Part shown: one piece after another, positions 18,092-60,931 of the stretch
Position numbering within the stretch: position 1 is the stretch's first letter
Layout: each line of letters begins with the position of its first letter
DNA from: an uncultured Anaerolineales bacterium
Lineage (GTDB): Bacteria; Chloroflexota; Anaerolineae; Anaerolineales; UBA11858
Direction: 5' to 3'
DNA: 64,000 bases
Assembly: GCA_964419495.1 (NCBI GenBank)
Contig: CAYQQX010000003.1
Location: 4,943 to 68,942, forward strand
Made by a program: the position numbers and the translations under genes
Notes under the pieces: model-generated
Told to the model about the DNA's origin: nothing
Seen by the model: only the letters and a program-made list of their open reading frames with translations
The model's database searches: none

Positions 18092-18739
18092 CTATGCTGG
18101 AGCATCTGCCAGGCGGAATGCCATATCGACAGCGGAGATGGCATCCTCGGCATAGCCATCAGCACCGATCCTCTTGGAAAATTCATCCGTGACAGGTGCC
18201 CCACCGACCATAACTTTAACTTGCTGACGTAATCCAGCTTCATCTAAAGCCTGGATTAGCTTTTCTTGCTGCAGCATGGTGGTTGTCAGCAGCGCAGAAG
18301 CTCCGACGATTGTCGCACCAACTTCTTTAACTGCTTCAACAAAAGCCGATGCCGGTTGATCTACACCGATGTCTTTAACTTGGAACCCGTTCGCGGTCAA
18401 CATGGTTCCGACCAGCGTCTTGCCAATCTCGTGCAGATCACCTTGAACTGTTCCAAGAACAACAGTTGCGACAACATCGCGTTTCTGATCTCCAACAAGG
18501 GCCGGTTCGAGTATTTCCAACGCCTCTTTCATGGCATCTGCACCGATGATCAGTTCGGGCAAATAGTATTCGCCGCTGGCAAATAACTCACCCACTTTTT
18601 GGATCCCTTTTGTTAGGCCGCGGGTGATGCACTCAAGAGGATCCAAACCCTGCTCAAGAGCCTCCTTGGCGAGGGCTACTGCATCTTCCGGCTCGCCATC
18701 AATCACAGCCTGGGCCAACTTCTCAAACATATCTGACAT
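18092..18739 (-). CDS. Cobalamin-binding corrinoid protein (MtbC/MttC/MtgC-like)
   Basis: It contains the B12-binding motif DxHxxG (GDLHEIGK), then SALLTTT and VMVGGAP, with an N-terminal helical cap domain. The ATG at 18739 lies 5 nt after a perfect AGGAGG and is preferred over the track start at 18769. Confidence 0.88.
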   Translation of the reverse strand: MSDMFEKLAQAVIDGEPEDAVALAKEALEQGLDPLECITRGLTKGIQKVGELFASGEYYLPELIIGADAMKEALEILEPALVGDQKRDVVATVVLGTVQGDLHEIGKTLVGTMLTANGFQVKDIGVDQPASAFVEAVKEVGATIVGASALLTTTMLQQEKLIQALDEAGLRQQVKVMVGGAPVTDEFSKRIGADGYAEDAISAVDMAFRLADAPA

Positions 18740-18952
18740 AAAATCCTCCTTGCTAATCGATGCGAACAACTTTTGTTTTTAATCTTCGCTCTCAAATTTC
18801 CAATAAGACCTCCTCAGATATCTACACTTTTCCACTTGTGATCTTCTTTGATGCCACCACAATATTTAACTCATGTTACACACACGTAGCGAGGTTTCCC
18901 TGAGCTTGCGTAACATCAATATTTAAATTAGAAAAAGACCATAATAAAATAA

Positions 18953-26077: not shown

Positions 26078-26256
26078 TAGGGCAAAGTAGAAACAGCTTG
26101 AAATGGGAATTTCCAAAGGAGGCGAAAGTCTTGGTCATTGGAGGAGGGGTGGTCGGCTGCAGCGTTGCAAACCATCTCACTAAGCCAGGATGGAAAGACG
26201 TTATTATTTCAGAAAAAATCCAAATTTCGGCTGAACAATGTAAAAGAACCGAGTAG
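26074..26256 (+). pseudogene. Relic of the N-terminus of a DMGO-like flavoprotein
   Basis: Residues AKVLVIGGGVVGCSVANHLTKPGWKDVIISEK (about 26122..26217) align with [32 protein letters not shown] of 48467..50947. Similarity then stops and the frame terminates at 26256. There is no credible start or RBS. Confidence 0.6.
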
Positions 26257-38446: not shown

Positions 38447-38495
38447 GTCAGCTTTCTTCATGTGTAGCATATTCTTTGAAACAAGAGAGGAATCC

Positions 38496-39962: not shown

Positions 39963-40121
39963 CTCAGTATATTCTTTTTGAGAACATAGAAAAATACCGT
40001 CTAACAACCGCATGTAATGGGGCTGGCCGATGGCCGACCACTGATGCAAGGCGCTAGGTTTCGAGAAAGTGCGATGGTTGAGAATGAGCCATCATCAGCA
40101 TGATGAAAAAGGAAAAATAAA

Positions 40122-44231: not shown

Positions 44232-44233
44232 GG

Positions 44234-45589: not shown

Positions 45590-45629
45590 TGTCTACTCCC
45601 TTTTACACACGCTAATAGTCGATTTCAAT

Positions 45630-46994
45630 TTAATGGATTGGCGAAAATCCCAAATTTTTTATCGTCCACTTGACACCCTTGCCAAATATACCTCGTAAGC
45701 TTTTGGGCCCAATATAGGGCAGCCTGCGGTTGACAATAAAATGGTTGGTAAACTTGTTCGCTTCGCCTACCATCAGATCAGCAATGATACGGCCAAAGGT
45801 TTGCGTGGTAGGGACACCTTCACTAATCCCAAATCCGTAAAAGATGTTTTTATGATCCCCCATCACACCTGCGGCAGGAACTTTTCCGATGGTAAAAGCA
45901 TTCGTTCCCCCCCAGGTATGTTCGATTTGCAAACCCTCTAATTGTGGGAAGAACGAGAACAAGTTATCCCTAACAAGTTTTGTAACGGTTTTATCGTTTC
46001 CAGAGCTGATGGCATCATTGTGATAATACGTATAATCTCTTCCACCCATCAATATGCGTCCATCGGCAGTAGGAATGCTGTAACTATACATAATTCTCTC
46101 ATCGGATAACCCCTGCCGCTTTCCCCAGCCAATCGATTCCCACTGAGATTCACTAAGTGGTTCTGTCACGATTTGATAAACACTTACTGGAAATACCCGG
46201 TTCTGGAAAAACCCCAGTTTGTGGGCATAGGCGTTCACTGCTAATACCAGGATAGGCGCACGAATTTCGCCTAATTCAGTATCTACATTATGGACTACCC
46301 CTGGTGTGATGCGTGTAACAACGGTCCGCTCAAATATTTCGATATCATTCTGTTCGACGATTTGCTTCATACCCCGGACTAGTTTTGCTGGATTGAGAAT
46401 GGCGCCTTGAGGTTGCGACAATCCAGCCACAAAGAGCGGGGACTTGATCTCCTGTTCTAATTCTTCCCCATGGAGGATGGATGATTCCAACCCAAACGAG
46501 CTCAATGCATCCCGGTATTCTTCCAGTTCTTCAATCTGCTTATCATCTAAGGCAACGGTGAGCATTCCGTTTTCTTCCAAATCACAATCGATGCCATATT
46601 CTGAGATCATTTGCTTGACGAAATTTAGTCCGTAATAGGATACTTCCATACTTCCCATTCGGATTTCAGGGTCAGGTTGCTCCCAATCGAGCAAGGCGTT
46701 CCCAACACAGAAGCCGCCATTGCGTCCACTAGCACCATACCCACAGCAGGCACCTTCAAGTATGACGATTTTCTTGTCGGGAAACCTCTGGCGAATATGA
46801 TACGCAGCAGAAAGGCCTGTAAAACCTCCTCCCACGATGACCACATCCGCATTATGACTACCGCGTAGAGGTTCGTTGATTTTCTGGTTCTCCAAATCGA
46901 CGGTTTTGAACCAGTAATTATCAACATAATATTCGTAGAGATCTGGTGGTCTGAGGTTTTTGCTACGGTTATGAAACTTTGAAAAATATTTCAT
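45630..46994 (-). CDS. FAD-dependent oxidoreductase (DAO family, gamma-glutamylputrescine-oxidase-like), copy A
   Basis: It is 454 aa. Its first ~100 residues are nearly identical in protein to copy B, although many synonymous DNA differences exist. Its start overlaps the MttB stop (ATGA). Confidence 0.75.
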   Translation of the reverse strand: MKYFSKFHNRSKNLRPPDLYEYYVDNYWFKTVDLENQKINEPLRGSHNADVVIVGGGFTGLSAAYHIRQRFPDKKIVILEGACCGYGASGRNGGFCVGNALLDWEQPDPEIRMGSMEVSYYGLNFVKQMISEYGIDCDLEENGMLTVALDDKQIEELEEYRDALSSFGLESSILHGEELEQEIKSPLFVAGLSQPQGAILNPAKLVRGMKQIVEQNDIEIFERTVVTRITPGVVHNVDTELGEIRAPILVLAVNAYAHKLGFFQNRVFPVSVYQIVTEPLSESQWESIGWGKRQGLSDERIMYSYSIPTADGRILMGGRDYTYYHNDAISSGNDKTVTKLVRDNLFSFFPQLEGLQIEHTWGGTNAFTIGKVPAAGVMGDHKNIFYGFGISEGVPTTQTFGRIIADLMVGEANKFTNHFIVNRRLPYIGPKSLRGIFGKGVKWTIKNLGFSPIH

Positions 46995-48451
46995 GGTCCA
47001 TGCCTTTCTATTTGTTCGGATGCAGCGGTTAGTATATCCCGCAGTTCTTTCTGTAAGGCTTTGTCCAGTGGCTCAGGTTCATGCTCAGTCAGAATTTTGT
47101 CGAATTTCGCCCTGGCGCGCATACGAATATCAGGAGATGGTGGTTCTCCCATTGATATGCGCGGATAAGATAATTCAGGTATCCAAATTTCCCGCAAATA
47201 TTTTCGGGTATGCTTCTGCCCAAGGAAATGTCCCCCTGGTCCGACATTCTTGATCGCATCCATTGCCAAGCCATCAATACTGGTATCAATCCCTTCTACC
47301 AGGGTACGGTGGGTATGATATATCTCATCATCAAAGATGATTTGTTCTGGCACCAGCAAAGTTGAAGACTTGATCATCCCCAGTCCTTCAGCCAGATCTG
47401 CACCAGCCATGGCAGCCATCAGGGCTGTATACACACTGTCCCGCCCCAGTTTCCATGAATTTGGTTCAGGGCTGTCCATGGCGAATGCCCCAGCCAGGGC
47501 GGGAACCCCCCAATCGTGGGCTAACTGAATTCCGGCAGTATTGCACAAATATTTCTCTGATATGCCTACAATGTATCCGGCTGTTTGTGGATCCATAACG
47601 GAAGCACACAGTGAATAGAAAACAGGGGCACCGGGTGCAACCAACTGCATCAGGACGATGGCACTCACCAATTCAGCGTTTCCCACAACCAATGCCCCAC
47701 CCGTCGTGGCTGGTGCAGTGGAGCCAAGCGTGGGCATGGCCATAAATCCAACAGGAACGCTGGCTTTGGCGAAGGTTATGGCAGCTTCGATGGCTTCTTT
47801 GTCCTGGTTCAAGGGTGAAATTGTACAGATTAACGCCGAGAGTGGTGGCTTTGCCCGCATGGTTTCTCGATCTCCGGACACAATCTCAGCCATACGAACG
47901 GCATTTTCGGCAAGAATTGGATTTACGGATGTCACTGTCTGAACGTGCTTGACTGTGTTATTGAAACTGGTCTCAATTTCATGCAACGCCGCGGTTGCCC
48001 CATAGTCTTGAGCACTTACCATTGGCCAATAAAATGCGATGGATGACAGCGCGTCTGCCACTCGTGCCATACTGGCAACGTCTTCTTTTTGAGATGTGCG
48101 CGGTGCTCCCGTGAGAAAATCGAGTGTCTCTACTCCAACGCCATCTGTCCCAAAGTAGCTGCGATTTCCATCCAAGAAAAGCTCATTCCCCTTTTCCCGT
48201 CCCACCAATTGGTAGGTGCGGGGCGCTCTTCTGATTGCATCAAGTACTAGGTCGGGGGATAACTTTACGATGTGGCTATTTCCGTCAACCGCCGCGCCAT
48301 GATCAGCAAAGATTTCCAATGCCTTCTCTGAAGGAAATCGCACCCCCACAGTTTCTAGGAGGTGCAGCGTAGCCGATTGGATAGATTCAACTTCATCAGC
48401 ACGTAGCACATCCAGGCTAAATTTTGGGCAAATTGGTTTGATATTTGACAT
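46991..48451 (-). CDS. MttB-superfamily methyltransferase (non-Pyl)
   Basis: It is 486 aa and contains IAFYWPMVSAQD, NTVKHVQ, MPTLGSTAPAT, NAELVSAIVLMQLVAPGAPV, DPQTAGY and GPGGHFLGQKHTRKY. Confidence 0.85.
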   Translation of the reverse strand: MSNIKPICPKFSLDVLRADEVESIQSATLHLLETVGVRFPSEKALEIFADHGAAVDGNSHIVKLSPDLVLDAIRRAPRTYQLVGREKGNELFLDGNRSYFGTDGVGVETLDFLTGAPRTSQKEDVASMARVADALSSIAFYWPMVSAQDYGATAALHEIETSFNNTVKHVQTVTSVNPILAENAVRMAEIVSGDRETMRAKPPLSALICTISPLNQDKEAIEAAITFAKASVPVGFMAMPTLGSTAPATTGGALVVGNAELVSAIVLMQLVAPGAPVFYSLCASVMDPQTAGYIVGISEKYLCNTAGIQLAHDWGVPALAGAFAMDSPEPNSWKLGRDSVYTALMAAMAGADLAEGLGMIKSSTLLVPEQIIFDDEIYHTHRTLVEGIDTSIDGLAMDAIKNVGPGGHFLGQKHTRKYLREIWIPELSYPRISMGEPPSPDIRMRARAKFDKILTEHEPEPLDKALQKELRDILTAASEQIERHGP

Positions 48452-48466
48452 TCTAGCTACATATCA

Positions 48467-50947
48467 TTAACTTCGCACCCTCTCGTTTTTGGGATCATAA
48501 AGCGGGCGCAACGATGCCTTGGCTGGATAGCGTTCACCGGCGATATCGATTTCATAAGTGCCGCTGTTAATGAATTCATTTGTGGCGCCGCCTTCATGAT
48601 GAACAAACCCCATCCCCATGGCACCGCCCAGGGTAAAGCCATAGGAGCCGGTTTGCAGGTATCCAACGATCTCTCCACTGCGGTAGATGATTTCATTACC
48701 ATAAAGCAGCGGCTCCGGGTCATCGAGCAAGAACAAAACCATGCGATATTTCAGCTGCCCGCTCTCTTTATGGCGTAGGAGCGCATCCCTGCCAATAAAT
48801 CCCCCTGGCTTGTCAAATTTAACTGCCCAACCTAAACCAGCCTCCAGGGGTGTATCTTCGCTATCCATATCATGCCCGTATTCGCGGTAGGCCTTCTCGA
48901 TCCTGAGGGAATTGAGTGCCTGGAAACCGGCATGCCTCAACCCCAGATCCTGACCTGCTTCGACAACAGCTTCATACACATGGGCTGAGAATTCAGCCGG
49001 CACGTAGAACTCAAAGCCTAATTCGCCCTCAAAGGTGACGCGCATGACTTGCACCATGGCATAACCGATATCGATATTTTGAGCCGTCATATAGGGAAAA
49101 GCTTCTTTGGAGACATCTGCTGATGTCAGTCGGCTGACAAGCTGGCGCGACTTTGGGCCCTGCATATTCATCAGTGTATAACCCGAGGTTACATCAGTAA
49201 CCAAGGCGTGGGCATCCTTGGGGATATGCTTATCTAGCCACACCAGGTCATGGCCGTAGAAATCGCCAGCACTGACAATGAAGTATTTGTCCTCTGCCAG
49301 GCGAGTGACGGTCAGGTCTGCTTCCATACCGCCGCGCTCATTCAACCATTGTGTATAAACGACCTTTCCCACAGGAACTGCGACATCGTTAGCGCAGATA
49401 TTATTGAGCACTTTTTCGGCATCGCGCCCCTGAACCAGGAACTTGGACATCGACGTGACATCCATGAGGATGACATCTTCTCGGCAGGCCCTGTGTTCAT
49501 CAGCGTGGTACTCAAACCAATTTTGGCGACCCCATGAATATTCTTCGATTTTGGCTTCAATTCCTGGGGGTGCGTACCAGTCGGGAATCTCCCAGCCCAT
49601 ACCATTGACGAAGAAAGCTCCCGCTTCGGCCAGTTTGTCGTGGATAGCCGTTCGGCGCACGTTCCGTGCGGTCTCGTTGGCCGTATTGGGATAGATGAGT
49701 TTGTATTGTAGACCTAAGGTTTCTACTGTGCGATCCGTCAGGAATTTCTGCGTTCCCTGGAAAGGGAAACAGCGGGCGATATCGATGTCTAGAGGATCGA
49801 CCGGGCAATAGCCATCCACAATCCATTGGGCCATGATTTTGCCTACCCCACCCCCCTCAAGAATGCCCAAAGAGTTCAACCCCGCCGCAACGTAGAAATT
49901 TTTCAACTCTGGCGCTTCCCCCATCAGTGGGCCACCGTCGGGGGTGAAGCTCTCCGGACCACAGAAGAATTTATGAATGCCAGCATCTTTGAGTATTGGT
50001 ACACGCTCCATGGCAATCTCAACATAAGGCATCATGCGGTCCCAATCGGGTTTGATTTCTCCAAATGTAAAATTCTTTGGGATGCCATCCATGCCCCAGG
50101 GAGCAGCCACAGGCTCGAAAAAGCCAACCAACAGACCCCCCACTTCCTCTCTAAAATAAGAGTAGCGGCCAAAATCTTCAATAATCGGCAAATCTGGACG
50201 AACCCCTTCTATCGGTTCTGTAAGCAAATAATAGTGCTCGGCTGCCTGCAATGGCACATTGACCCCGGCCATCTTCCCTAACTCACGACCCCACATCCCG
50301 GCACAATTGACCACAAACTCGGCCTCTATTTCGCCCTTATTGGTGACAACGCCTGTAACTCGTCCATTCGCTTTATTAATTCCAATGACCTCAGTTTCTT
50401 CGAGGATCTTGACGCCGCCCATCTTTGCACCTTTTGCAAGGGCCATCGTAAAGTCAACCGGGTTGGCGCGCCCATCTTCCGGCGTGAAAAATCCTGCGAG
50501 CACATCATTGGTATCGGCCAGCGGCCACATCTCTTTGACCTCTTTTGGTGAGATTTCTTGATAATTGATCCCGTGTTTTCGTGCCGCAACCGCCATCCGG
50601 CGCCTTTCTTCCAGCCAATCAGGCGTGCAGGCTAGCTGCAAATATCCAATATCTTTAAACCCTGTGGATTGGCCGGTTTCCGCCTCAAGGCTTTTAATCA
50701 ATTCCCGTGTATAGGTCACCATCTCGACGTACTGCTCATCTCCGCTGGGTGTTACAACTAAGCCAGCCGCGTGCCAGGTCGTCCCTGAGGTGAGTTCTTT
50801 ACGCTCTAAGAGTAATACATCTTTCCACCCAAGTTTTGTAAGATGGTATGCGACACTGCAGCCAATGACACCACCTCCGATGATCACGACTTGTGCATGA
50901 GAAGGTAAATCGCTTATAGAATTTGCTTGTGGCTGATTATTTGCCAT
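48467..50947 (-). CDS. Dimethylglycine oxidase/dehydrogenase-like flavoprotein (FAD + GcvT domains)
   Basis: It is 826 aa and contains VVIIGGGVIGCSVAYHL, SGTTWHAAGL and the C-terminal block TFEGELGFEFYVP. It is a paralogue of 57165..59627. Confidence 0.85.
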   Translation of the reverse strand: MANNQPQANSISDLPSHAQVVIIGGGVIGCSVAYHLTKLGWKDVLLLERKELTSGTTWHAAGLVVTPSGDEQYVEMVTYTRELIKSLEAETGQSTGFKDIGYLQLACTPDWLEERRRMAVAARKHGINYQEISPKEVKEMWPLADTNDVLAGFFTPEDGRANPVDFTMALAKGAKMGGVKILEETEVIGINKANGRVTGVVTNKGEIEAEFVVNCAGMWGRELGKMAGVNVPLQAAEHYYLLTEPIEGVRPDLPIIEDFGRYSYFREEVGGLLVGFFEPVAAPWGMDGIPKNFTFGEIKPDWDRMMPYVEIAMERVPILKDAGIHKFFCGPESFTPDGGPLMGEAPELKNFYVAAGLNSLGILEGGGVGKIMAQWIVDGYCPVDPLDIDIARCFPFQGTQKFLTDRTVETLGLQYKLIYPNTANETARNVRRTAIHDKLAEAGAFFVNGMGWEIPDWYAPPGIEAKIEEYSWGRQNWFEYHADEHRACREDVILMDVTSMSKFLVQGRDAEKVLNNICANDVAVPVGKVVYTQWLNERGGMEADLTVTRLAEDKYFIVSAGDFYGHDLVWLDKHIPKDAHALVTDVTSGYTLMNMQGPKSRQLVSRLTSADVSKEAFPYMTAQNIDIGYAMVQVMRVTFEGELGFEFYVPAEFSAHVYEAVVEAGQDLGLRHAGFQALNSLRIEKAYREYGHDMDSEDTPLEAGLGWAVKFDKPGGFIGRDALLRHKESGQLKYRMVLFLLDDPEPLLYGNEIIYRSGEIVGYLQTGSYGFTLGGAMGMGFVHHEGGATNEFINSGTYEIDIAGERYPAKASLRPLYDPKNERVRS

Positions 50948-51094
50948 GTGTGCCTCCTAAAATTGCGTACTCATCGATGCAAGAGATAACTACAAAAACA
51001 GATTGTGGGATTCGCAATTGGAAGCAGTATACCATAGACATATACCGATTATGCATTAATTCGCAGATATTTTTACCATTTTGTTATATATTTC

Positions 51095-51123
51095 TTGATT
51101 TTTCTTCACAATTGTGATATAGT
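51095..51123 (+). promoter_or_regulatory. Sigma70-like promoter of the Lrp gene, with an embedded palindromic operator candidate
   Basis: The -35 TTGATT (51095-51100) is followed by a 17-nt spacer and then the -10 TATAGT (51118-51123), which is preceded by TGa (extended -10). The perfect 12-bp palindrome TCACAATTGTGA (51106-51117) lies in the spacer. Confidence 0.5.
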
Positions 51124-51153
51124 GCCACGAAATAGTGCAGAATCGAGGGTAAT

Positions 51154-51660
51154 ATGCAGTATGTTGATCTAAAGGGGCAGGCAAAAATTGATGATATAGA
51201 TCTCCAAATCATCAAAATACTAAGTGAAGACGGCAGGACCCCATTTGCGCAAATTGCCAAACAACTGGGGGTATCTACAGGCATGATCCGTCAACGATAT
51301 CAACGCCTTGTTCAGGAAGGCGTTCTCCAGATTGTAGCCGTAACAAACCCCCTAGTGATGGGTTTTGCAACCATGGCTCAGATTGGTGTAAAGGCAGATG
51401 TTCATCGTTTGGAAGAAATTGCCGATGAGATTGCCCAATTTGAGGAAGTTATATATCTCGTATTAGTCACCGGCAGCTATGATCTTCATGTTGAAGTTGT
51501 CTGTAGAGACAAGACCCACCTACTCAACTTCCTTTCAAAGAAACTTCACGCCGTTGAAGGCGTCAAAGAAGCGGAAACTTTCATGTATCTACGTATTGCC
51601 AAAGAGAACTATGGTTGGGCGGGCATTACAGAAGTAAAACATCCTTATGGAGGTGAATAA
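51154..51660 (+). CDS. Lrp/AsnC family transcriptional regulator
   Basis: It is 168 aa with the HTH region DLQIIKILSEDGRTPFAQIAKQLGVSTGMIRQRYQRL followed by an AsnC-type domain. Confidence 0.85.
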   Translation: MQYVDLKGQAKIDDIDLQIIKILSEDGRTPFAQIAKQLGVSTGMIRQRYQRLVQEGVLQIVAVTNPLVMGFATMAQIGVKADVHRLEEIADEIAQFEEVIYLVLVTGSYDLHVEVVCRDKTHLLNFLSKKLHAVEGVKEAETFMYLRIAKENYGWAGITEVKHPYGGE

Positions 51661-51748
51661 TCCTTCAAATCCGCGAACGAAAAACCATTTATTTGGACAC
51701 AAAATATCTATCGAAAAAAATGGAAAATGAAAAAGGAGAGCGATTTCC

Positions 51749-52738
51749 ATGCCAATCCCAAATGAGATTCTTTACCTGACCGAAGAAGATGTCCAGCAAA
51801 CCCTTTCAGTGGCCGAAGCAGTCGATTTAGCAGAGAAAGGCATTAAAGAAGATGCGGTCGGAAATGTCGAGGGCGACAAGTTCTATATGAATGTCAATGA
51901 TGACGGTTTCATCAAACCCTTTTCAGGCTACATAGCGGGGGAAGAGTATGCTTATGTTAAATCGTTCAGTTACTTCCCTGACAATCCAAAGAAATATAAC
52001 CGGGCAACTACGTCTTCACAAGTTATCCTGATTGATTATGAAACCGGTCTTCCAGCGTGCTTCATGGGCGCCGATTGGGTGACGGGACTAAAGACCGCAT
52101 CTTCGACAGCCGTGACGACAGCCTACTTAGCACGACCCGAGTCTGATACGGTGACAATCTTCGGAGCTGGCACATTGGGACGGCTTCACCTCCAGGCGCT
52201 TGCTGAACGCTTTAAGCTCAAGCAAGCGTTTTTTATAGATATTATTCCTGAAGTAGCTCAATCCTGCGCGACAGATCTTGCTGCAGAATTAGGATTTTCT
52301 GTTGAAGCAGTATCTCTAGATGATCGGGAAGGTGCTGTTAGAAAATCGGATATTGTTTTTACGGTAACCACGGGAAGTCAAGAACTGGTTTACCTGGATT
52401 GGCTGAAACCGGGAACTTTTGTGGCGCGCCTGGGATCTTATCAAGAAGTCGCCCACAACGTGATCACCGGAGCCGACAAAGTGGTCCTGGATCGATGGAA
52501 ATATGTCAGCCCCAGGATTCCCGAAGTGATCCAATTGATCAAGGAAGGTAAATTCAGCCAGGAAAGCGTGTACGCCGAATGGCCCGATATTGTCGCAGAG
52601 AAAGTACCTGGACGCGAATCCCCAGATGAGATCATCGTTTTTATTGCGCTAGGAATCTGGGGCGAATATGCCGCCATATTACCCGAGGTTTTCCGTAAAG
52701 CAAAAGCTATGGGCCTGGGACGCGGACTGCCATTTTGA
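51749..52738 (+). CDS. Ornithine cyclodeaminase / mu-crystallin family NAD(P)-dependent enzyme
   Basis: It is 329 aa. TGLKTASSTAVTTAYLA and IFGAGTLGRLHLQAL (Rossmann) match the typical OCD_Mu_crystallin layout. Confidence 0.75.
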   Translation: MPIPNEILYLTEEDVQQTLSVAEAVDLAEKGIKEDAVGNVEGDKFYMNVNDDGFIKPFSGYIAGEEYAYVKSFSYFPDNPKKYNRATTSSQVILIDYETGLPACFMGADWVTGLKTASSTAVTTAYLARPESDTVTIFGAGTLGRLHLQALAERFKLKQAFFIDIIPEVAQSCATDLAAELGFSVEAVSLDDREGAVRKSDIVFTVTTGSQELVYLDWLKPGTFVARLGSYQEVAHNVITGADKVVLDRWKYVSPRIPEVIQLIKEGKFSQESVYAEWPDIVAEKVPGRESPDEIIVFIALGIWGEYAAILPEVFRKAKAMGLGRGLPF

Positions 52739-52866
52739 TTCTGAAAAAGGTAATCGTCATGCGCAGATCGAACAAAAGTAGCAAATAACTTCTATTCGGA
52801 AACCAAGAATAAAGGAAAAATTTCTTGGTTTCCTGGCTTCCAAATTAAATTAGTGAGAGGTATTGT

Positions 52867-54204
52867 ATGAGCAAAGATAAGCAAACGCTAACCGCTGAAG
52901 AAATCGTTCAACTGAGCAAAGAGTACACTTTCTTCTCATGGGCGGTGCAGTCTCAGGTCAACCCCATCCCAGTCACAAAATCCGAGGGCGTGTATTTTTG
53001 GGATGCCGATGGCAAGCGTTACCTGGACTTTTCTTCCCAATTAATGAACCAGAATATAGGCAATCAGCACCCCAAGGTGATCAAAGCCATCCAAGAACAG
53101 GCAGAAGAGTTGTGCTTTGTCCATCCCGGAAATGCCACCGAAGCGCGCGCCAACCTGGGCAAAAAGCTGTCCGAAGTCACCCCGGGAAAATTAAAGAAGA
53201 GCTTCTTTGCTCTGGGTGGTGCTGAAGCTAATGAAAATGCCATCAAGATCGCCCGCTTCTACACCGGGCGCCACAAGATCATGGCGCGCTATCGTTCCTA
53301 TCACGGCGCCACGCATGGAGCCGTAGCCTTGACCGGCGACTACCGCCGTAATGCCGTTGAACCGACGATGCCAGGGACGGTCCATTTCCTTGATCCGTAT
53401 TGTTATCGATGTCCTTTTGGGCAGAAGGTCGAATCCTGCAAACGAGAATGTATTTCCCATGTCGATGAGATCATCCAGTATGAGGGTCCCGACAAGATCG
53501 CTGCGATCATCATGGAGGGCGTCACCGGCTCCAATGGCCTGATCGTACCACCCGATGATTATTGGCCTGCGGTGCGCGAACTCTGCGATAAATACGGCAT
53601 CCTGCTGATTTCCGACGAAGTGATGAGCGGCTGGGGCCGCACAGGGAAATGGTTCGCCGTGGACAACTGGGACGTGGAGCCCGACATCATCACAACTGCT
53701 AAGGGGATCACATCCGGATATGTACCATTAGGGGCTGTGATCGTTTCAGAAGAGATCGCCAATCATTTTGAAGACGAGTATCTTTATGCAGGTTTGACTT
53801 ACAGCGGGCATGCGCTGGCCTGTGCAGCTGCGTTGGCGACCATCGATGTCTATGCCGATGATGGTCTGATTGACAATGCAGCAAATTTGGGGAACTATCT
53901 GGGGAAAGCACTGGAAGATATCAAGGAGCGCCATCCCTCCGTGGGTGATGTGCGCTATATCGGTCTATTCTCAACAATTGAACTCGTTGAAGATCGCAAG
54001 ACGAAAAAACCATTCTCAGCTGCTGTGATGGCTGATGTAAAAAATGCGTTGTTGGATAGTGGTTTGTTCACCTTCATTATGGTAAAGGACATCGGGACGA
54101 TGGTATTCATTGTCCCGCCGCTTTGTATTACAAAAGAACAGCTAGATGAAGGTCTGGCTCTGGTTGAACAGGCTTTAGAAGTTTCTGATCGAAAGGTGAA
54201 ATAA
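52867..54204 (+). CDS. Class-III omega-aminotransferase (beta-alanine/taurine:pyruvate aminotransferase-like)
   Basis: It is 445 aa and contains [62 protein letters not shown] and [10 protein letters not shown] (PLP-lysine). Confidence 0.75.
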
Positions 54205-54205
54205 T

Positions 54206-55675
54206 ATGTCGAAAATCTTGAATTACATCAACAATGAATGGGTAGAACCGAAAGTTAGCGAGTACGCCGAGGTGATCAATCCGGCCACAGGAGAGGTGAT
54301 CGCCAAAACGCCCTTGTGTGGTAAAAGTGAAGTGGATGCAGCCACAATGGCAGCCTCAGAGGCATTTCCAGCGTGGCGTGAGACCCCGGTAAACGATCGC
54401 ATCAAGTATCTGTTTAAATTGCGGGATTTACTCATCGCCAACCATGATGAGATCGGCCGCATTATCACCGAGGAATGCGGCAAGACCTTCGGTGAGGCCA
54501 AAGCCGAAATGGTGCGCGCCATCGAGAATGTGGAAGTTGCCTGCGGCATGCCAATGATGATGAAGGGTGAAATCGCAGAGGATATCGCCCCAGGCATCGA
54601 TGAGATCATGCTGCGCCAACCTTTGGGCGTGTGTACCACGATCGCGCCATTCAACTTCCCGGGCATGATCACCTTTTGGTACCTACCCTATGCGCTGGCA
54701 ACGGGTAATACCTATATCGTCAAACCCTCAGAACGCGTCTCAATGACTATGCAGTTCATCTTCGAATTGATCGAGCAGGTTGGTTTCCCTCCGGGCGTGG
54801 TCAATATGGTGCACGGCTCGAAAGATGCCGTCAATGCCATTCTTGATCACCCTGATATTCGCGCCATCACATTTGTCGGCTCGACAAATGTGGCCAAATA
54901 CGTCTACCGCCGCGCAGCCGAGAACGGCAAACGCGTCCAGGCGCAAGGTGGGGCGAAAAACCCGGTTATCATCATGCCCGATGCCGAAATGGATATGGCA
55001 ACCCAAATTGTTGCCGATTCAGCCTTTGGGTGCGCTGGTCAGCGCTGCTTGGCAGTATCCCTGGCCGTGACGGTTGGAGAAGCACGCAATACCTTCAACG
55101 AAATGATTTGCGACGCGGCATCTAACCGTGTTGTCGGTAACGGCCTCGATGCAGATGTGCAAATGGGTCCCGTGATTAACCAGGCCAGCAAAGCGAACAT
55201 CGAAAAACTTATCGGACTGGGAACCACGGAAGGGGCCACCGCGTTGGTAGATGGACGCGGCACAACTATCGAAGGTTATGAAGGGGGTACGTTTGTCCGT
55301 CCAACAGTTTTATCTGAAGTGCAACCCAACAGTGAAATTTGGAAAACCGAGATCTTTGGTCCGGTGTTGAGCATGATGCATGTCAAAACCATCGAGGAAG
55401 CCATCGAATTGGCCAATAGTCATATTTATGGCAACCAGGCCAGTCTGTTTACTTCCAGTGGGGCCGCGGCGCGCAAGTTCCGTTATGAAGTGGATGCAGG
55501 CAACGTGGGCATTAACATCGGCGTCGCCGCCCCCATGGCATTCTTCCCCTTTAGCGGATGGAAAGACAGCTTCTTTGGAACTCTCCACGGGCAAGGACAA
55601 CATGCCGTCGAGTTTTTCACTCAAACCAAGGTCGTCATTGAGCGTTGGCCCAAGGAATGGTCACGAAAATTCTAG
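54206..55675 (+). CDS. mmsA: Methylmalonate/malonate-semialdehyde dehydrogenase (CoA-acylating ALDH)
   Basis: It is 489 aa and contains the ALDH catalytic blocks [10 protein letters not shown] and EIFGPVL. The C-terminal [13 protein letters not shown] tail is typical of the MmsA/IolA subgroup. Confidence 0.75.
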
Positions 55676-55683
55676 GAGAATAA

Positions 55684-57144
55684 ATGTACTCTGAGACCCC
55701 GGATATCACCTCGATCTCATCCCATCACAAAATCCAGATTCTGAGAGATTCGGAACTGGAGACATTGAAGAACGGCACCATGCAGCTCTTGTCGGAAACG
55801 GGTGTCTATTTCCCCAGCCAAATAGCCTTGTCGATCTTCGCCGATCACGGGGCCAACGTGGATTGGGATACGAAGATCGTCCGCATTCAGCCCGATTTAG
55901 TCAAAAAGGCCATGGCGACCGCCCCACGCAGCTTTGTGTTGGGCGGCCGAGAAGAACGTTTCGACCTGATACTCGATGGTCGTAACTCTTACCTTTGCAC
56001 CGATGGATGCGGGGTCCATGTCATTGATCCAGAAACCCGAGAAAAACGTGCTTCCCGAAAATCGGATGTGGCCATGATGGCGCGCATCAGTGACGCCATT
56101 CCTATGCTCAGCTTCTTCTGGCCATTGGTGAGTGCCCAGGATTTCGGCAAAACTGCACCACTGCACGAATGCCATGCGGGCCTGACCAACACCTTGAAAC
56201 ACGTACGCGGGGGAACAACCGTTCACCCTGAACTGGCCCCCGCGATTGTAGAAATGGCCACCGTTGTCTCGGGAAGTGACGCGGAGAGACGCCGGCGACC
56301 ACCAATTTGTGCCAATATTTGCACAATAGCACCTATGGCTCAAGATGGCCACGGCATCGAAACCGCGTTGATTTATGCAGCCGCAGGAATTCCTGTTAGT
56401 TTTATGGCTATGCCCAACATGGGCTCAACTGCGCCAGCTTCAGTACTTGGTGCGCTGGTTATGGGTGATGCAGAGTCAGTCAGCGCAATGGTGCTGATGC
56501 AGTTGGCGAACCCTGGTGCACCTGTCTTCCATTCGATTATCACCTCGCTGATGGATCCGCGTACCGGTGGATACATCGGGGATATCCCCTTGCCAGTCTC
56601 GTTGATCGCTGTGCAGTTAGCCCATGCCTGGAACGTTCCCAGCTTAGGCGGCGGGTCGTTCAGCAGTGACGCACCCGATGTCGGCTGGCAGTCGGCGTTC
56701 GAAGCAGGTTTTGGCTCAGCAAAGATACCCCTGGCTGGTGGTGAGATTTGCGGCTATATGGGATTGCTGAATTCTTCGATGACTATCTACCCTGAACAGA
56801 TCATTCTTGATGCGGAGATCGCCAGGAATGTTTATGATACATACAAAGAATTCGAATTCAAAGATTTCGATGCTTCATTGGATGTGATCAAAGCTGTAGG
56901 CCCAGGCGGACATTATTTGAGAGAAAAACACACTCGGGTGTACATGCGAGATTTTCACTACTCACCTATCTTCCGCCAATTGGATGCCGAAGGCCACCTG
57001 CGCGAGCCGCGCGATGTAGCATACGATGAATTCAAAAGAATCTATGAAACTCATCAGCCTGAACCGCTGCCTGATGAGGCCATAAAAGAAATGGACAACA
57101 TCCTGGCAGCGGCAGACAGAACGGCAGCAAAATTAGCGGACTAA
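55684..57144 (+). CDS. MttB-superfamily methyltransferase (non-Pyl)
   Basis: It is 486 aa and belongs to the same clade as 11144 and 24611 (SFFWPLVSAQDFG, LHECHAGLTNTLKHVRGGTTV, PPICANICTIAPM, DPRTGGY). Confidence 0.88.
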   Translation: MYSETPDITSISSHHKIQILRDSELETLKNGTMQLLSETGVYFPSQIALSIFADHGANVDWDTKIVRIQPDLVKKAMATAPRSFVLGGREERFDLILDGRNSYLCTDGCGVHVIDPETREKRASRKSDVAMMARISDAIPMLSFFWPLVSAQDFGKTAPLHECHAGLTNTLKHVRGGTTVHPELAPAIVEMATVVSGSDAERRRRPPICANICTIAPMAQDGHGIETALIYAAAGIPVSFMAMPNMGSTAPASVLGALVMGDAESVSAMVLMQLANPGAPVFHSIITSLMDPRTGGYIGDIPLPVSLIAVQLAHAWNVPSLGGGSFSSDAPDVGWQSAFEAGFGSAKIPLAGGEICGYMGLLNSSMTIYPEQIILDAEIARNVYDTYKEFEFKDFDASLDVIKAVGPGGHYLREKHTRVYMRDFHYSPIFRQLDAEGHLREPRDVAYDEFKRIYETHQPEPLPDEAIKEMDNILAAADRTAAKLAD

Positions 57145-57164
57145 CAAAAAAGGTAGGGCAGAAC

Positions 57165-59627
57165 GTGGAGAAACCGAATAGCAAATTACCACCACAAGCT
57201 CGAGTCGTGATTATTGGCGGCGGTGTCATCGGCTGCAGTACCGCCTATCATCTGGCAAAACTGGGCTGGAAAGACATCGTGCTCCTGGAGCGCGCCCAGC
57301 TTACCGCCGGCACCACCTGGCATGCCGCTGGGCTAATTGAGGCGGGTGGGTTCATGGACGCCACCTCAATCGAGATGGCTGATTACACTTTGAAGCTTTA
57401 CAGTTCCCTGGAAGCCGAAACCGGATTGGCAACCGGCTACAAAGATGTGGGCATGATTACTCTGGCATCTACTCCAGAACGATTGGAGGAAATGCGACGA
57501 ATTTCTGCAAAAAACCGCTTCCATAATGTTGAGGTGGAGGAAATCTCCCCGAAGAAGATCAAGGAAATCTGGCCGCTGGCGTATACCGACGACCTCCTGG
57601 CCGGGTTTTATTCACCTGGGGATGGGCGCGTCAATCCCATCGATGTCACCATGGCCTTAGCCAAAGGCGCTCGCATGAGCGGCGTCCAAATCTTCGAAGA
57701 GACGGCTGTCACTGGTTTCAGCATCAAAAACCAGATGGTAACCGGAGTGATTACCGAAAAGGGCGAGATCCAGGCCGAGTACGTAGTCAACTGCGCCGGC
57801 ATGTGGGCCGGAGAGATAGGGAAGCTGGCCGGCGTCAATGTGCCGTTGCAACCCATGGAGCACTACTACCTGATCACAGAGCCAATTGACGGCATTGACC
57901 CCAAATTGCCCGTTTTGGTGGATTCCGATAAGTACGCTTATTATCGAGAAGAAGTGGGGGGTGTGTTGTTCGGCCTGTTCGAGCCTGAGGCTGCTCCCTG
58001 GGCCATGGACGGCATCCCCAAGAACTTCACCTTTGGGGAAATCAACCCCGATTGGGATCGCATGATGCCTTACATCGAGGAGGCCATGAAACGCATCCCG
58101 GTGCTTGAAAATGCAGGTATCCACAAATTCTTCTGCGGCCCGGAGAGCTTCACGCCAGACAATGGCTTCATGATGGGGTTGGCACCCGAGTTGGATAACT
58201 TCTATGTGGCTGCGGGTTTCAACTCCCTGGGAATTCTCATGGGCGGAGGCGCTGGCAAAGTGATGGCTCAATGGATCGTCGATGGCGTCTCGGATGTCGA
58301 CATCACCGAGATCGACATTGCCCGCATGCTGCCATTCCAGAATACCCCCAAATATCGGCAAGACAGGGGTGTCGAGATACTCGGGTACATGTTCAATATC
58401 GGTTATCCCAATAAACAGTTAAAAACCGCCCGCAATGTTCGCCAATCTCCTTTCCATCAAAGATTGGCCGAAGCAGGGGCGTATTTTGGCGTCTATGCCG
58501 GCATGGAATATCCGGATTGGTTTGCACCCAAAGGCGTTGACCCCAAAGTCGAATACTCCTGGGGGCGGCAGAACTGGTTCGAATACAGCGCCGCAGAGCA
58601 TCGCGCCACGCGCGAAAACGTCACCATGATGGATTATTCAGTCATGGGCAAAATCCTGGTCCAGGGTCGCGACGCCGAAAAATATCTCAACCGCATCTGC
58701 GCCAATAACGTCGCCGTGCCTGTCGGGCGTTGTGTCTATACTCAATGGTGCAACGAAACCGGCACCATCGAAGCCGATCTAACAGTTACTCGCCTGGCAG
58801 AAGACCTGTTCCTCATTCTCAGCGGAGATGCCACCATCCCCGCCGTGATGGCCTGGCTGCGAAGACACATTCCCTCCGATGCCCATGCTATCATAACGAA
58901 TATCTCTTCAGCATACAGTGTGCTCAACATCCAGGGTCCGAAATCTCGTGAATTTTTGAGCACCGTTACCCATGCCGATATGTCCAATGAAGCCTTTCCC
59001 TTCCTTACTTCCCAAGAGATCGACATTGGCTATGCCCTGGTAAGAGCCATCCGCATCACGTACGTCGGAGAATTGGGCTGGGAGTTGTATATCCCATCCG
59101 AATTCTCTTTGCACGTCTTCGATACCCTTGTAGAAGCAGGAAAAGATTTTGAACTGAAACACATCGGGCTGCAGGCCTTGAACACGCTGCGCCTAGAAAA
59201 AGCCTATCGCGACTATGGTGGCGATATCGACAACACCGATACGCCCCTGGAAGTTGGCTTGGGCTTCTTTGTTGATTTCGACAAACCTAGCGGATTCATC
59301 GGTCGAGATGCGTTACTAAAACTTAAAGAATCCGGCTACCGCTATCGCATGCCGCAGTTCCTGCTTGAGGATCCTGAACCGATGATGTATTACGGCGAGA
59401 TCATCTACCGGGATGGGGTACCTGTGGGGAATATCATGTCCGGAGGCTTCGGGCACACCTTAGGCGCGTCTGTCGCTGTTGGACCGGTGGAAGGCGAAGA
59501 TGAACCTGTGACGGTCGATTTCATCCAGAGCGGCGCCTATGAAATTGACATTGCGGGTGTGCGCTACCCGGCCAAAGCATCCCTAAGGCCCATGTATGAC
59601 CCCAAGCTCCTTCGAGTACGATGTTAA
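57165..59627 (+). CDS. Dimethylglycine oxidase/dehydrogenase-like flavoprotein (FAD + GcvT domains)
   Basis: It is 820 aa with a GTG start 20 nt after the MttB stop. It contains VVIIGGGVIGCSTAYHL, AGTTWHAAGL and TYVGELGWELYIP. Confidence 0.85.
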   Translation: MEKPNSKLPPQARVVIIGGGVIGCSTAYHLAKLGWKDIVLLERAQLTAGTTWHAAGLIEAGGFMDATSIEMADYTLKLYSSLEAETGLATGYKDVGMITLASTPERLEEMRRISAKNRFHNVEVEEISPKKIKEIWPLAYTDDLLAGFYSPGDGRVNPIDVTMALAKGARMSGVQIFEETAVTGFSIKNQMVTGVITEKGEIQAEYVVNCAGMWAGEIGKLAGVNVPLQPMEHYYLITEPIDGIDPKLPVLVDSDKYAYYREEVGGVLFGLFEPEAAPWAMDGIPKNFTFGEINPDWDRMMPYIEEAMKRIPVLENAGIHKFFCGPESFTPDNGFMMGLAPELDNFYVAAGFNSLGILMGGGAGKVMAQWIVDGVSDVDITEIDIARMLPFQNTPKYRQDRGVEILGYMFNIGYPNKQLKTARNVRQSPFHQRLAEAGAYFGVYAGMEYPDWFAPKGVDPKVEYSWGRQNWFEYSAAEHRATRENVTMMDYSVMGKILVQGRDAEKYLNRICANNVAVPVGRCVYTQWCNETGTIEADLTVTRLAEDLFLILSGDATIPAVMAWLRRHIPSDAHAIITNISSAYSVLNIQGPKSREFLSTVTHADMSNEAFPFLTSQEIDIGYALVRAIRITYVGELGWELYIPSEFSLHVFDTLVEAGKDFELKHIGLQALNTLRLEKAYRDYGGDIDNTDTPLEVGLGFFVDFDKPSGFIGRDALLKLKESGYRYRMPQFLLEDPEPMMYYGEIIYRDGVPVGNIMSGGFGHTLGASVAVGPVEGEDEPVTVDFIQSGAYEIDIAGVRYPAKASLRPMYDPKLLRVRC

Positions 59628-59654
59628 TCAAGCTCATCTCTAAATATTCTTTTT

Positions 59655-59749
59655 GTCACTCTGAGGGAGCGTAGGAAGCGAAGCGGTTGAAGCGACCGAA
59701 GAGTCTCTGATACCATGTGTTCCGGATCCTTCGCTGCGCTCAGGATGAC
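59655..59749. repeat. Imperfect inverted repeat element (GTCAYYCTGAG...GAAGGA arms)
   Basis: The left arm is gtcactctgagggagcgtaggaagc. The reverse complement of the right arm is gtcatcctgagcgcagcgaaggatc. The centre contains reiterated gaagcga units. Confidence 0.5.
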
Positions 59750-59796
59750 ATTACTAAGATAGCTTCTAATCGGATTTAAAAGAAGGAGTGATACCG

Positions 59797-60273
59797 ATGT
59801 CAAACACAGAAAAGAAACACCTCATTGATCAGTTAACTGAAACTCACCTGGCTACCCGGGCAACATTAGATGATGTCGATCTGGATATGCTTGTTCATAA
59901 AGAAACTGGTTGGCGAGTCAGGGACATCGTAGGGCACATAGCGACCTGGGATTGGGAAATTGCGAAATCCCTTCGTGCTTATCAGGCTGGATCAGAATAC
60001 CTTACTCCCAATCTTGATGAGGAAGAGGTTGAATTTAACCAAAATGCGGTTTTAGAGCAACAAAAGCTGACTGATCAACAAATTCTAAATGAATTTGAAA
60101 CCGCGTGTGATGAATTCAGGAAAGCAATTCAGGAAATTCCAGATGATCAATTTCCAGGCGATTTGCTCTATCCTTGGGGAGATGAGCGTGGGGATATCGC
60201 TACGATGGTTGAGTACATGATTGAACACAGTGATGAGCATCGAGAAGAAATCATCGCTGCAATTCAAGAATAG
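59797..60273 (+). CDS. DinB-superfamily four-helix-bundle protein
   Basis: It is about 158 aa from the ATG at 59797 (AAGGAG 8 nt upstream). RDIVGHIATWDWE and the C-terminal EHSDEHREEI give the histidine pattern of DinB-like proteins. Confidence 0.5.
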   Translation: MSNTEKKHLIDQLTETHLATRATLDDVDLDMLVHKETGWRVRDIVGHIATWDWEIAKSLRAYQAGSEYLTPNLDEEEVEFNQNAVLEQQKLTDQQILNEFETACDEFRKAIQEIPDDQFPGDLLYPWGDERGDIATMVEYMIEHSDEHREEIIAAIQE

Positions 60274-60312
60274 AAGATGTTTGAAACCACCTTCTTGTAA
60301 GGATTAACATCT

Positions 60313-60924
60313 ATGGTTGAAAATTTACGAGAACTCGGGGTCGTAAAATTAGTTCAGGTGCAGCCTAACGGCCTGATAATCGAGAAACCCTCCGGTTACT
60401 TTTATGACGTCACCAGACGCGTTGAAGTAGAGCGCTTGATTATTAACGCATTGGGCATCGAAGCCATCACCCCAGATGGGAAGCATGTGCTCGATATCCA
60501 CCACATTAACCACCCTGACAAAGCCTATGATGACGATGATCTGGTTTCCATCGGGTTTACATCGCACTACCAAGCCATAAGGGCACGCTTTGGGGAGCAC
60601 ATGGTCGACGGCAGCGCAGGAGAGAATATCATCATCGATTATGCTGATGAAATTTGGGAGCAAGACCTTGGAAGGCAAATCGCCATCGAAAGCGCGGAGA
60701 CCGGCCATAGAGCGCTGCTGGATTTGGTAAGTTTCGCACCACCGTGCGAGGAGTTCAGCCACTTCGTTGCCCAAAGTCAGCATGAGCGCCTCCCTGCAGC
60801 GGAGTTGAAATCTATCCTTCAGTTCCTGAATAAAGGTCGGCGTGGTTTCTTGCTGGTGCTGAGTGAAGGGCAAAAAGAAGCAACCGTTCAATCAGGGGAT
60901 CGGGTGTTTGTGGTGAAGGAATAA
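60313..60924 (+). CDS. MOSC-like beta-barrel domain protein
   Basis: It is 203 aa. GENIIIDY, PPCEEF, RRGFLLVLSEG and VQSGDRVFV follow the MOSC pattern (GEN...PC...GF..V..G.V..GD.V). Confidence 0.45.
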   Translation: MVENLRELGVVKLVQVQPNGLIIEKPSGYFYDVTRRVEVERLIINALGIEAITPDGKHVLDIHHINHPDKAYDDDDLVSIGFTSHYQAIRARFGEHMVDGSAGENIIIDYADEIWEQDLGRQIAIESAETGHRALLDLVSFAPPCEEFSHFVAQSQHERLPAAELKSILQFLNKGRRGFLLVLSEGQKEATVQSGDRVFVVKE

Positions 60925-60931
60925 GATAAGC

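Follow-up and report, generated by a model that had tools for sequence, protein, structure and literature searches.

Gene content of the locus

The stretch of DNA considered here, referred to as the window, comprises 64,000 nucleotides of contig CAYQQX010000003.1 (assembly GCA_964419495.1) from an uncultured Anaerolineales bacterium of the Chloroflexota, and its sequence recurs on a JGI contig of 94 kb as well as in marine and seawater metagenomes. At two places in the window, a gene of the MttB methyltransferase family adjoins a gene for a protein resembling dimethylglycine dehydrogenase (DMGDH), an FAD- and folate-dependent amine demethylase, and these two pairs are the subject of this report. 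The window holds 44 genes, among which nine belong to the MttB family (named M1–M9), three are DMGDH-like (D1–D3) and one encodes a corrinoid protein, together with numerous amine-handling enzymes.

On the + strand, M8 (55684..57144; 486 aa; PF06253 over residues 15–472, E=5e-63) is followed by D3 (57165..59627; 820 aa, GTG start) after a gap of 20 nt in the coordinates of the open reading frames (ORFs). The gene order is reversed on the - strand, where D2 (48467..50947; 826 aa) precedes M7 (46991..48451; 486 aa; PF06253 over residues 13–474, E=3e-70) by 15 nt. Both pairs had been noticed from the letters alone, with these positions and gaps, and the ORFs and Pfam domains confirm them. A third intact DMGDH-like gene, D1 (19736..22159, + strand), has no MttB neighbour. 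The remaining MttB-family genes are located at 6195 (M1), 7639 (M2), 11144 (M3), 12657 (M4), 24611 (M5), 29944 (M6) and 63195 (M9, cut by the window end).

M8 is 74% identical to M5, 65% to M3 and 45% to M7, while D2 and D3 share 63% identity and D1 only 33–34% with either. Because the two paired MttB proteins are only 45% identical and their DMGDH-like partners 63%, D2–M7 and M8–D3 are old paralogous pairs rather than the result of a recent copy.

Adjacency within the window alone proves little, since nine of its 44 genes are MttB paralogues: when the gene labels were shuffled over the 44 genes, two or more same-strand MttB/DMGDH adjacencies arose in 31% of trials (P=0.31), and the arrangement is thus not more than expected by chance. 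The claim was therefore moved to the conservation of the pairs across genomes.

Conservation of the pairs across genomes

An alignment of the eight full-length MttB paralogues was searched against one genome per GTDB species, which returned 77 loci (labelled with L-numbers), nearly all of them in Anaerolineae metagenome-assembled genomes (MAGs). ORFs were called in the retrieved loci and labelled against the window proteins, an MttB being counted as M8-type when at least 70% identical to M8; the M8 orthologues in Anaerolineales MAGs show 70–89% identity, and those assigned to uncultured marine Chloroflexota of this order lie at 76–89%. A D3-like gene lies directly downstream of the M8-type MttB in 17 of 18 GTDB species representatives, or in 20 of 21 cases when three additional copies are included. 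M5-type MttB genes show the same arrangement in 4 of 6 loci, of which one is truncated where its contig ends. Among the roughly 162 MttB genes of other subclades in these loci, a DMGDH-like gene is directly downstream in four and directly upstream in two. The adjacency of MttB homologues to FAD–GcvT genes, for which the sequence-only reading had proposed a neighbourhood survey, is accordingly a property of the M8 and M5 types and almost never of the other subclades.

The pair stays constant while its flanks vary. The upstream neighbour can be a gene for an aldehyde dehydrogenase (ALDH), for a corrinoid protein or for an aminotransferase, or else one that is SacDH-like; on the downstream side there is either DinB or a gene for aldehyde:ferredoxin oxidoreductase (AFOR) that converges on the pair. 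A single nucleotide separates the stop codon of MttB from the start codon of the DMGDH-like gene in most relatives (TAA-T-ATG), and an AGGA-type motif lies within the 3' end of the MttB gene; the 1-nt spacing suggests translational coupling of the two genes. The association also reaches beyond the order: a corrinoid protein–MttB–DMGDH-like triplet occurs in a MAG of the Acidimicrobiia, another phylum (L079), and a Thermoflexia MAG (L060) has the arrangement DMGDH–MttB–DMGDH. In the reverse direction, 12 of 80 diverse metagenomic DMGDH-like loci (47–71% identical) have an MttB-family gene within 8 kb, and some of these 12 also carry a corrinoid protein; as no formal background was computed, this count is indicative.

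The possibility that the pairing is a coincidence of chance or annotation, brought about by the high density of MttB genes, draws on the outcome of the label shuffle, and on the second pair, which is missing in several close relatives and for which no RNA was seen. For M8–D3 it fails in view of the conservation in 17 of 18 species, the occurrence of the pair in a second phylum (L079) and the trace of a duplicated pair described below, and we consider it barely tenable as a general explanation. For D2–M7 alone, chance adjacency remains a fair description.

The second pair and a decayed duplicate of the first

The D2–M7 arrangement recurs in three relatives (L005, L008 and L009). In two further sets of loci (L001/L004 and L019/L022) D2 runs straight into a DAO gene with no MttB in between, and more distant genomes have, instead, a D2-like gene facing a unit of DinB, an M7-like MttB and MOSC. 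Absence from related genomes, which the sequence-only reading had named as a sign of chance adjacency, is thus seen for D2–M7 in L001/L004 and L019/L022, whereas M8–D3 is kept. With M7 missing in several close relatives and no RNA seen, D2–M7 is the weaker case, and M7 is better regarded as an accessory member present in some genomes only. D2 itself is more widespread, a D2-like gene being present in 12–13 of the 21 loci that hold an M8–D3 pair. This distribution is in keeping with two consecutive oxidative demethylations of the kind carried out by DMGDH and sarcosine dehydrogenase, and D2 is proposed, by analogy, as a second oxidative demethylase with a role like that of sarcosine dehydrogenase beside DMGDH. 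Downstream of M7 on the - strand lie two DAO-only FAD oxidoreductase genes (45630–46994 and 44234–45589; PF01266), whose products weakly resemble the models for aminophosphonate oxidoreductase and pipecolate oxidase, with scores below the cutoffs. The D2–M7–DAO–DAO operon is best explained as an accessory branch of the M8–D3 regulon.

A third trace of the pairing lies at M5 (24611..26077, + strand), which has lost its DMGDH partner. A 60-aa ORF (26074..26256, + strand) overlaps the M5 stop codon, and within it positions 26107–26232 match residues 7–54 of D2 and D3 by tblastn (52–55% identity, E ~1e-6). The homology ends just ahead of the TWHAAG flavinylation motif, which carries the FAD histidine. 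The decayed N-terminus that had been suspected here from the sequence is therefore real. An ORF of the saccharopine-dehydrogenase family (26138–27460) overlaps this region, and its true start is probably the ATG at 26291. The idea that the relic is a misread Rossmann motif of that ORF was rejected, given that tblastn returns a genuine 42-aa stretch of D2/D3 type in the other frame. Because M5 is so close to M8, M5 and the relic are taken as a decayed duplicate of the M8–D3 pair; M5-type orthologues in L016–L018 keep an intact D3-like gene 1 nt downstream. The pairing had been described as recurrent within the window. Two intact pairs and a relic do exist, although they are not three independent cases, since M5 with its relic is a decayed duplicate of M8–D3 and D2–M7 an old paralogous arrangement.

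An explanation based on shared regulation only would treat the region as a methylated-amine island, in which MttB and DMGDH-like enzymes would each have an imported substrate of their own (such as a quaternary amine for MttB and free dimethylglycine or sarcosine for the DMGDH-like enzyme), both feeding the one-carbon pool of tetrahydrofolate (THF). The packing of nine MttB and three DMGDH-like genes into one window, where adjacency is not significant by itself, is in keeping with it. So are the modularity of MttB genes seen with M5 and M7, and the lack of an MttB partner for D1, the paralogue most like true DMGDH. Shared regulation would not demand, however, that a 1-nt stop/start spacing persist in 17 of 18 species while the flanks change, nor that the pairing be restricted to one MttB and one DMGDH subclade. 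Moreover, proteins of the D2/D3 type (at least 65% identity) were found, in the loci surveyed, solely in MttB neighbourhoods. We regard this explanation as rather unlikely.

Properties of the paired proteins

The ORFs of M8 and M7 are uninterrupted, with no in-frame UAG or pyrrolysine at the MttB pyrrolysine position: where MttB (7xcl) has its pyrrolysine, the alignment places Phe in M8 and Ala in M7. To judge from sequence, both are members of the MttB superfamily without pyrrolysine. M8 scores 153 bits to pyrrolysine-containing MttB and 146 bits to the glycine betaine methyltransferase MtgB, to which it is about 30% identical; the corresponding scores of M7 are 202 and 196 bits. The glycine-betaine-binding residues of MtgB are Y97, R312, H348 and F356 (PMC13080624). 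In alignments at about 30% identity, in which single positions may shift by one residue, these correspond to C/L/G/S in M8 and V/L/E/S in M7. Because the four binding residues are not conserved, M8 and M7 are unlikely to be glycine-betaine enzymes. By analogy with its family, M8 is proposed to be a quaternary amine:corrinoid methyltransferase that removes the first methyl.

All four domains of the DMGDH architecture (DAO, FAO_M, GCV_T and GCV_T_C) are found above Pfam cutoffs in D1, D2 and D3. Against human and rat DMGDH the score of D3 is 517 bits, and against Arthrobacter dimethylglycine oxidase (DMGO) it is 360 bits. The histidine for covalent 8-alpha-FAD attachment is invariant in D1–D3, H53 of D3 aligning with H48 of DMGO and with the DMGDH motif (TWHAAG). 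In the folate domain, the Asp of the D3 motif IEADLTV aligns with D552, the acidic residue of that domain in DMGO; human DMGDH has a Glu. D1 is nearer to mitochondrial DMGDH (606 bits) than D2 or D3, which appear to form a clade of their own apart from it. D3 is proposed to remove the second methyl, and possibly the third, as 5,10-methylene-THF.

The surrounding operon and the substrate question

The M8–D3 pair stands at the end of a + strand operon that is itself conserved. An AsnC/Lrp regulator gene (51154..51660, + strand) lies between the two divergent operons, a position kept in relatives. It is followed by a gene for an NAD(P) enzyme of the ornithine cyclodeaminase (OCD)/mu-crystallin family (51749..52738, + strand; PF02423), which falls below every NCBIfam cutoff, has SbnB-like proteins, Pyr2C reductase and archaeal alanine dehydrogenase as PDB relatives, and is conserved at the operon head; a role as amino-acid dehydrogenase or imine reductase can be surmised. 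Next comes a class-III omega-aminotransferase, AT3_a (52867..54204, + strand; PF00202, NF004718 above cutoff), whose closest solved relative is the taurine:2-oxoglutarate aminotransferase 6JIX (411 bits, the next match reaching 294). It precedes an ALDH of the CoA-acylating (methyl)malonate-semialdehyde dehydrogenase (MMSDH) type (54206..55675, + strand; TIGR01722, 560 bits against a cutoff of 448.5). The ALDHs at the equivalent position in three relatives are 40–61% identical and still of MMSDH type, which makes four lineages in all. Downstream of D3 are DinB-family, MOSC-domain and Amidohydro_3 genes (59788..62662, + strand), kept after D3 in closer relatives.

Across genomes, the conserved unit begins with the AsnC regulator, the OCD/mu-crystallin-family enzyme, one or two class-III aminotransferases and sometimes a SacDH-like gene, and ends with the ALDH, sometimes a corrinoid protein, and then the MttB and DMGDH-like genes. 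In L010 and others, a corrinoid protein and an Opp/Dpp-type ABC transporter precede it, and L010 has a single co-directional cluster made up of the genes for the corrinoid protein, the ABC transporter, OCD, the aminotransferase, MttB and the DMGDH-like enzyme. An AFOR gene converges on the M8–D3 pair from the opposite strand in seven loci (L007, L010, L013, L016, L017, L023 and L025), some of them without an ALDH, which suggests that the aldehyde step can proceed without oxygen.

An omega-aminotransferase combined with an acylating semialdehyde dehydrogenase is the classic consumption route for beta-alanine-like primary amines, and the presence of both in the operon fits the consumption of a primary amine. 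Methylated taurines are known as marine osmolytes. A C2–C3 omega-trimethylammonio acid, that is, beta-alanine betaine or its sulfonate analogue N,N,N-trimethyltaurine, is our guess for the substrate, and a doubtful one. Beta-alanine betaine is produced by natural marine communities (PMC9321204).

Three other readings were tried and rejected. Glycine betaine was discarded as the first-choice substrate on two grounds, the lack of conservation of the four MtgB residues and the content of the operon, which has an omega-aminotransferase and an MMSDH, not glycine- or serine-handling genes. A gamma-aminobutyrate (GABA) shunt, leading from gamma-butyrobetaine via GABA to succinate, does not agree with the ALDH, which reaches 287 bits against a cutoff of 646 for the succinate-semialdehyde dehydrogenase (SSADH) model as opposed to 560 against 448 for MMSDH. 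A lysine or ornithine reading of the OCD, aminotransferase and ALDH genes was dropped as well, the models for piperideine-6-carboxylate (P6C) and pyrroline-5-carboxylate (P5C) dehydrogenases lying far under their cutoffs.

Transcription in seawater

Contigs at least 99% identical to the window were collected from two seawater metatranscriptomes. They cover 1–19500, a long - strand operon, and 51670–62600, which spans the M8–D3 operon through to the DinB, MOSC and Amidohydro_3 genes at a depth of 1–8. The maximum for the window is found at 16275–18770, where one contig of 2.3–2.5 kb per run joins the solute-binding protein and corrinoid protein genes at a depth of 32–35, which is 5–10 times that of any other part. 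In these two metatranscriptomes no RNA contigs were found over 44000–51500 (D2, M7 and the DAO genes), nor over 20000–40000 (M5 with its relic, and M6; D1 has one 198-nt piece), where zero contig depth is not proof that RNA is absent. The patchy coverage argues against carry-over of DNA. At position 58108, a single base inside D3 is missing in one metatranscriptome contig (run X9), which reflects either strain variation or an assembly error.

The proposed pathway and its partners

The + strand genes from 51154 to 59627 are best explained as a conserved Anaerolineales operon for the complete breakdown of a small quaternary-ammonium osmolyte by serial demethylation, in which an MttB enzyme and a corrinoid protein would take the first methyl and an FAD/folate enzyme the later ones; we put the probability of this reading at about 0.6. 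By family analogy, M8 would move one N-methyl from the quaternary amine to a Co(I) corrinoid protein, and a methylcorrinoid:THF methyltransferase (MT2) encoded elsewhere would hand it on to THF. The tertiary amine left by M8 would be the substrate of D3, a relation to which the gene order, the spacing, and the aminotransferase and ALDH that would act next all point. D3 is expected to oxidise an N-methyl on its covalently bound FAD and to release it as 5,10-methylene-THF on the GcvT domain, while the electrons would leave via an acceptor such as electron-transferring flavoprotein (ETF). The last methyl may be removed by D3 or by its paralogue D2, taking the tertiary amine through the secondary to the primary amine. 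The gene content suggests that AT3_a would then transaminate the primary amine to an aldehyde, which the MMSDH-type ALDH, or AFOR in relatives, would oxidise to an acyl-CoA.

The sequence-only reading had deduced a coupled MttB and FAD/GcvT pathway from the linkage of both pairs. For M8–D3 such a pathway is well supported by the near-universal adjacency, the likely translational coupling, the corrinoid neighbours in four relatives, the enzymes for handling a primary amine and the RNA. For D2–M7 the same claim is weak.

The only cognate-type corrinoid protein gene of the window (18092..18769, - strand) encodes B12-binding and B12-binding_2 domains, and its best NCBIfam model is MtgC (218 bits, below the cutoff of 310). 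Its product is presumed to be the methyl acceptor common to the MttB paralogues. Homologues of it lie directly upstream of the M8 orthologues in four relatives (L008, L009, L014 and L079).

Several observations weigh against serial demethylation by M8 and D3, in addition to the possible shifts in the MtgB residue mapping. The corrinoid protein of the window is encoded 37 kb from M8, in another operon. Neither the window nor the 10 kb beyond either end yielded a pterin-binding MT2, a RamA-type activase or an ETF, and none turned up near the pair in about 28 relatives, where 21 kb per locus was covered and whole genomes were not searched. No RNA contig crosses the M8/D3 junction (57080–57247), and depths are low. 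M5 has stayed intact despite its decayed partner and M7 comes and goes between genomes; therefore, MttB genes can persist without an adjacent DMGDH-like gene. Finally, the model assigns no function to the genes of the OCD family, DinB, MOSC and amidohydrolase, and the substrate guess is built on family-level assignments.

The search for partners extended to the unlabelled ORFs of at least 150 aa from 31 loci, which were clustered and their representatives scanned; the only recurrent family among them was that of the OppD/F ATPases. The missing partners are not a contradiction, because in Ruegeria pomeroyi, too, the partners are scattered over the genome, the MT2 (MtgD) being encoded elsewhere (PMC12478193).

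A divergent ORF of the URO-D family (31619–32647, + strand) has a Pfam match over residues 191–337 only and no NCBIfam hit, with marginal PDB matches (E ~0.004) to uroporphyrinogen decarboxylase and to methylcobalamin:CoM methyltransferase of the MtaA type. This ORF type is kept after an M5-type MttB in L021. It is the only MT2 candidate, possibly an unusual methylcorrinoid methyltransferase.

The lack of an MT2 gene near any of the approximately 28 pairs also lends itself to a non-canonical coupling, in which M8, the corrinoid protein and D3 would form a complex, with THF on the D3 GcvT domain, or D3 itself, replacing MT2 in a self-contained demethylase. The corrinoid protein–MttB–DMGDH triplets in L008, L009, L014 and L079 would suit such a complex, as would the tight stop/start spacing, which suggests matched protein amounts. 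We know of no precedent for a GcvT fold taking a methyl from Co(III), and in R. pomeroyi the MT2, MtgD, is simply encoded elsewhere (PMC12478193); the MT2 search spanned 21 kb per locus. This form of coupling is highly improbable in our estimation. Serial demethylation with a separately encoded MT2 is preferred.

Other loci in and near the window

The long - strand operon (1–19458) is about 20 kb in size and runs some 2.2 kb past the window start (L163). Its first part contains the corrinoid protein, SBP5, two permeases, M4, M3, an agmatine deiminase and a carbon–nitrogen (CN) hydrolase of the N-carbamoylputrescine amidase type. The rest contains M2, M1, a DAO gene, an aminotransferase, a tungsten-type AFOR and a SacDH-like gene, with the OppD/F ATPases just outside the window. 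Many Anaerolineae MAGs retain the order M4–M3–agmatine deiminase–CN hydrolase–M2–M1, and transcripts of the operon are found in situ. Its content suggests that the substrates of these MttB enzymes are related to methylated agmatine or putrescine-type amines.

Within this operon, the class-III aminotransferase at 3497–4813 (- strand) is above the NCBIfam equivalog cutoff for GntE, the transaminase of guanitoxin biosynthesis (562 bits against a cutoff of 525). Further genes for guanitoxin are not evident, and in relatives this aminotransferase type sits within the M8–D3 operon; the GntE name is probably an over-call of a catabolic enzyme.

At 27587–29947 (+ strand), an APH-type kinase is fused to a domain with the class-III aminotransferase fold (786 aa), and the gene overlaps the start of M6 (29944–31395) by 4 nt. 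Such fusions beside MttB genes are also found in L021, L070 and L078. The protein resembles the kinase and phospho-lyase pairs for ethanolamine or hydroxylysine phosphate, and M6 may accordingly be linked with substrates of the choline or phosphocholine type.

Three tandem sulfatase genes (35323–39962, + strand), followed by a carboxylesterase gene (40122–41612), have no RNA contigs. As listed, the ORFs begin with overlaps of more than 100 nt with the adjacent ones, and the true starts are probably further downstream. About 1 kb past the 3' end of the window, beyond M9, lies a gene (L161, 13902–19520) for a protein of 1872 residues with Aminotran_1_2 as its only match, apparently an unusually large pyridoxal phosphate (PLP) protein, and then a gene for an AMP-binding enzyme.

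Relation to known systems and significance

In catabolism of beta-alanine and taurine, an omega-aminotransferase works together with a malonate-semialdehyde or sulfoacetaldehyde dehydrogenase, as in the case of BauA and BauC. The present operon resembles these routes at the family level only, AT3_a being nearest to Toa (PDB 6JIX) and the ALDH belonging to the MMSDH family. It differs in that the known routes begin at the free primary amine, while here the genes sit upstream of a demethylation pair. D2 and D3 share with mitochondrial DMGDH (PDB 5L46, 4PAB) and Arthrobacter DMGO (1PJ5) the four domains, the FAD histidine and the folate-domain acidic residue; unlike D1, which is nearer to DMGDH, they seem to constitute a separate clade.

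The sequence-only reading had noted that in the characterised anaerobic MtgB system dimethylglycine, a tertiary amine, is reportedly an end product. A tertiary amine as end product in anaerobes agrees with work on Eubacterium limosum grown on gamma-butyrobetaine, where 4-dimethylaminobutyrate accumulates 1:1 and the authors call its fate unknown; the characterised MttB members without pyrrolysine take one methyl and leave a tertiary amine (PMC8604678). M8 and M7 share the PF06253 TIM barrel and the lack of pyrrolysine with these enzymes, namely MtgB of Desulfitobacterium hafniense (PDB 2QNE/9YCE) and MtyB, MtcB, MtpB and MthB of E. limosum, and the same conversion of a quaternary amine and a Co(I) corrinoid protein into a tertiary amine and methyl-Co(III) would be expected of them. 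M8, with its scores of 146 bits to MtgB and 153 bits to pyrrolysine-containing MttB, differs in its substrate pocket. In contrast to E. limosum, which excretes the tertiary amine, a gene predicted to serve its consumption is here fixed beside the MttB gene.

The nearest known scheme is that of aerobic marine Proteobacteria, including R. pomeroyi, in which MtgBCD takes the first methyl of glycine betaine and demethylation of dimethylglycine and sarcosine follows, the genes of the later steps often being close to mtgBCD (PMC12478193). A cold-seep study has also drawn mtgB cluster types that include DMGDH and soxB, many of them assigned to Chloroflexi (PMC8547467). As in R. pomeroyi, a corrinoid-dependent MttB-family enzyme would come first and THF-linked oxidative demethylases later. 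In contrast to R. pomeroyi, the genes described here belong to Chloroflexota (Anaerolineales), mostly of oxygen-poor marine waters and sediments, and M8 is distant from MtgB and without its four binding residues. The MttB/DMGDH-like pair is spaced by 1 nt with no MtgD-type MT2 nearby, and the omega-aminotransferase and MMSDH point to a product other than glycine.

The hybrid scheme of corrinoid and flavin/folate enzymes has thus already been published for glycine betaine in marine Proteobacteria. The novelty lies in the lineage, in MttB and DMGDH subclades that are distinct, in a pair with a fixed spacing of 1 nt, and in a context that suggests a betaine other than glycine betaine. Literature searches on MttB with DMGDH in Anaerolineae or Chloroflexi, on Desulfolinea and on methylated taurines returned nothing specific, and no paper describing this Anaerolineales operon was found. 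Tentatively, the operon may represent an undescribed complete route for a non-glycine betaine in marine Anaerolineales of oxygen-poor waters, leading from beta-alanine betaine or N,N,N-trimethyltaurine to acetyl-CoA or sulfoacetyl-CoA.

Betaines are major marine osmolytes and sources of carbon, nitrogen and methyl groups. The pair, with its aminotransferase and CoA-acylating ALDH and with RNA detected in situ, is a clonable candidate for the complete mineralisation of a non-glycine betaine in uncultured Anaerolineales. It also provides a starting point for working out the substrates of the very many MttB paralogues that are uncharacterised, of which nine are found in this 64-kb window. If the proposed pathway is true, it would add new substrate specificities to both the MttB and the DMGDH families, and it would explain the fate of the tertiary amines that the known anaerobic MttB systems excrete.

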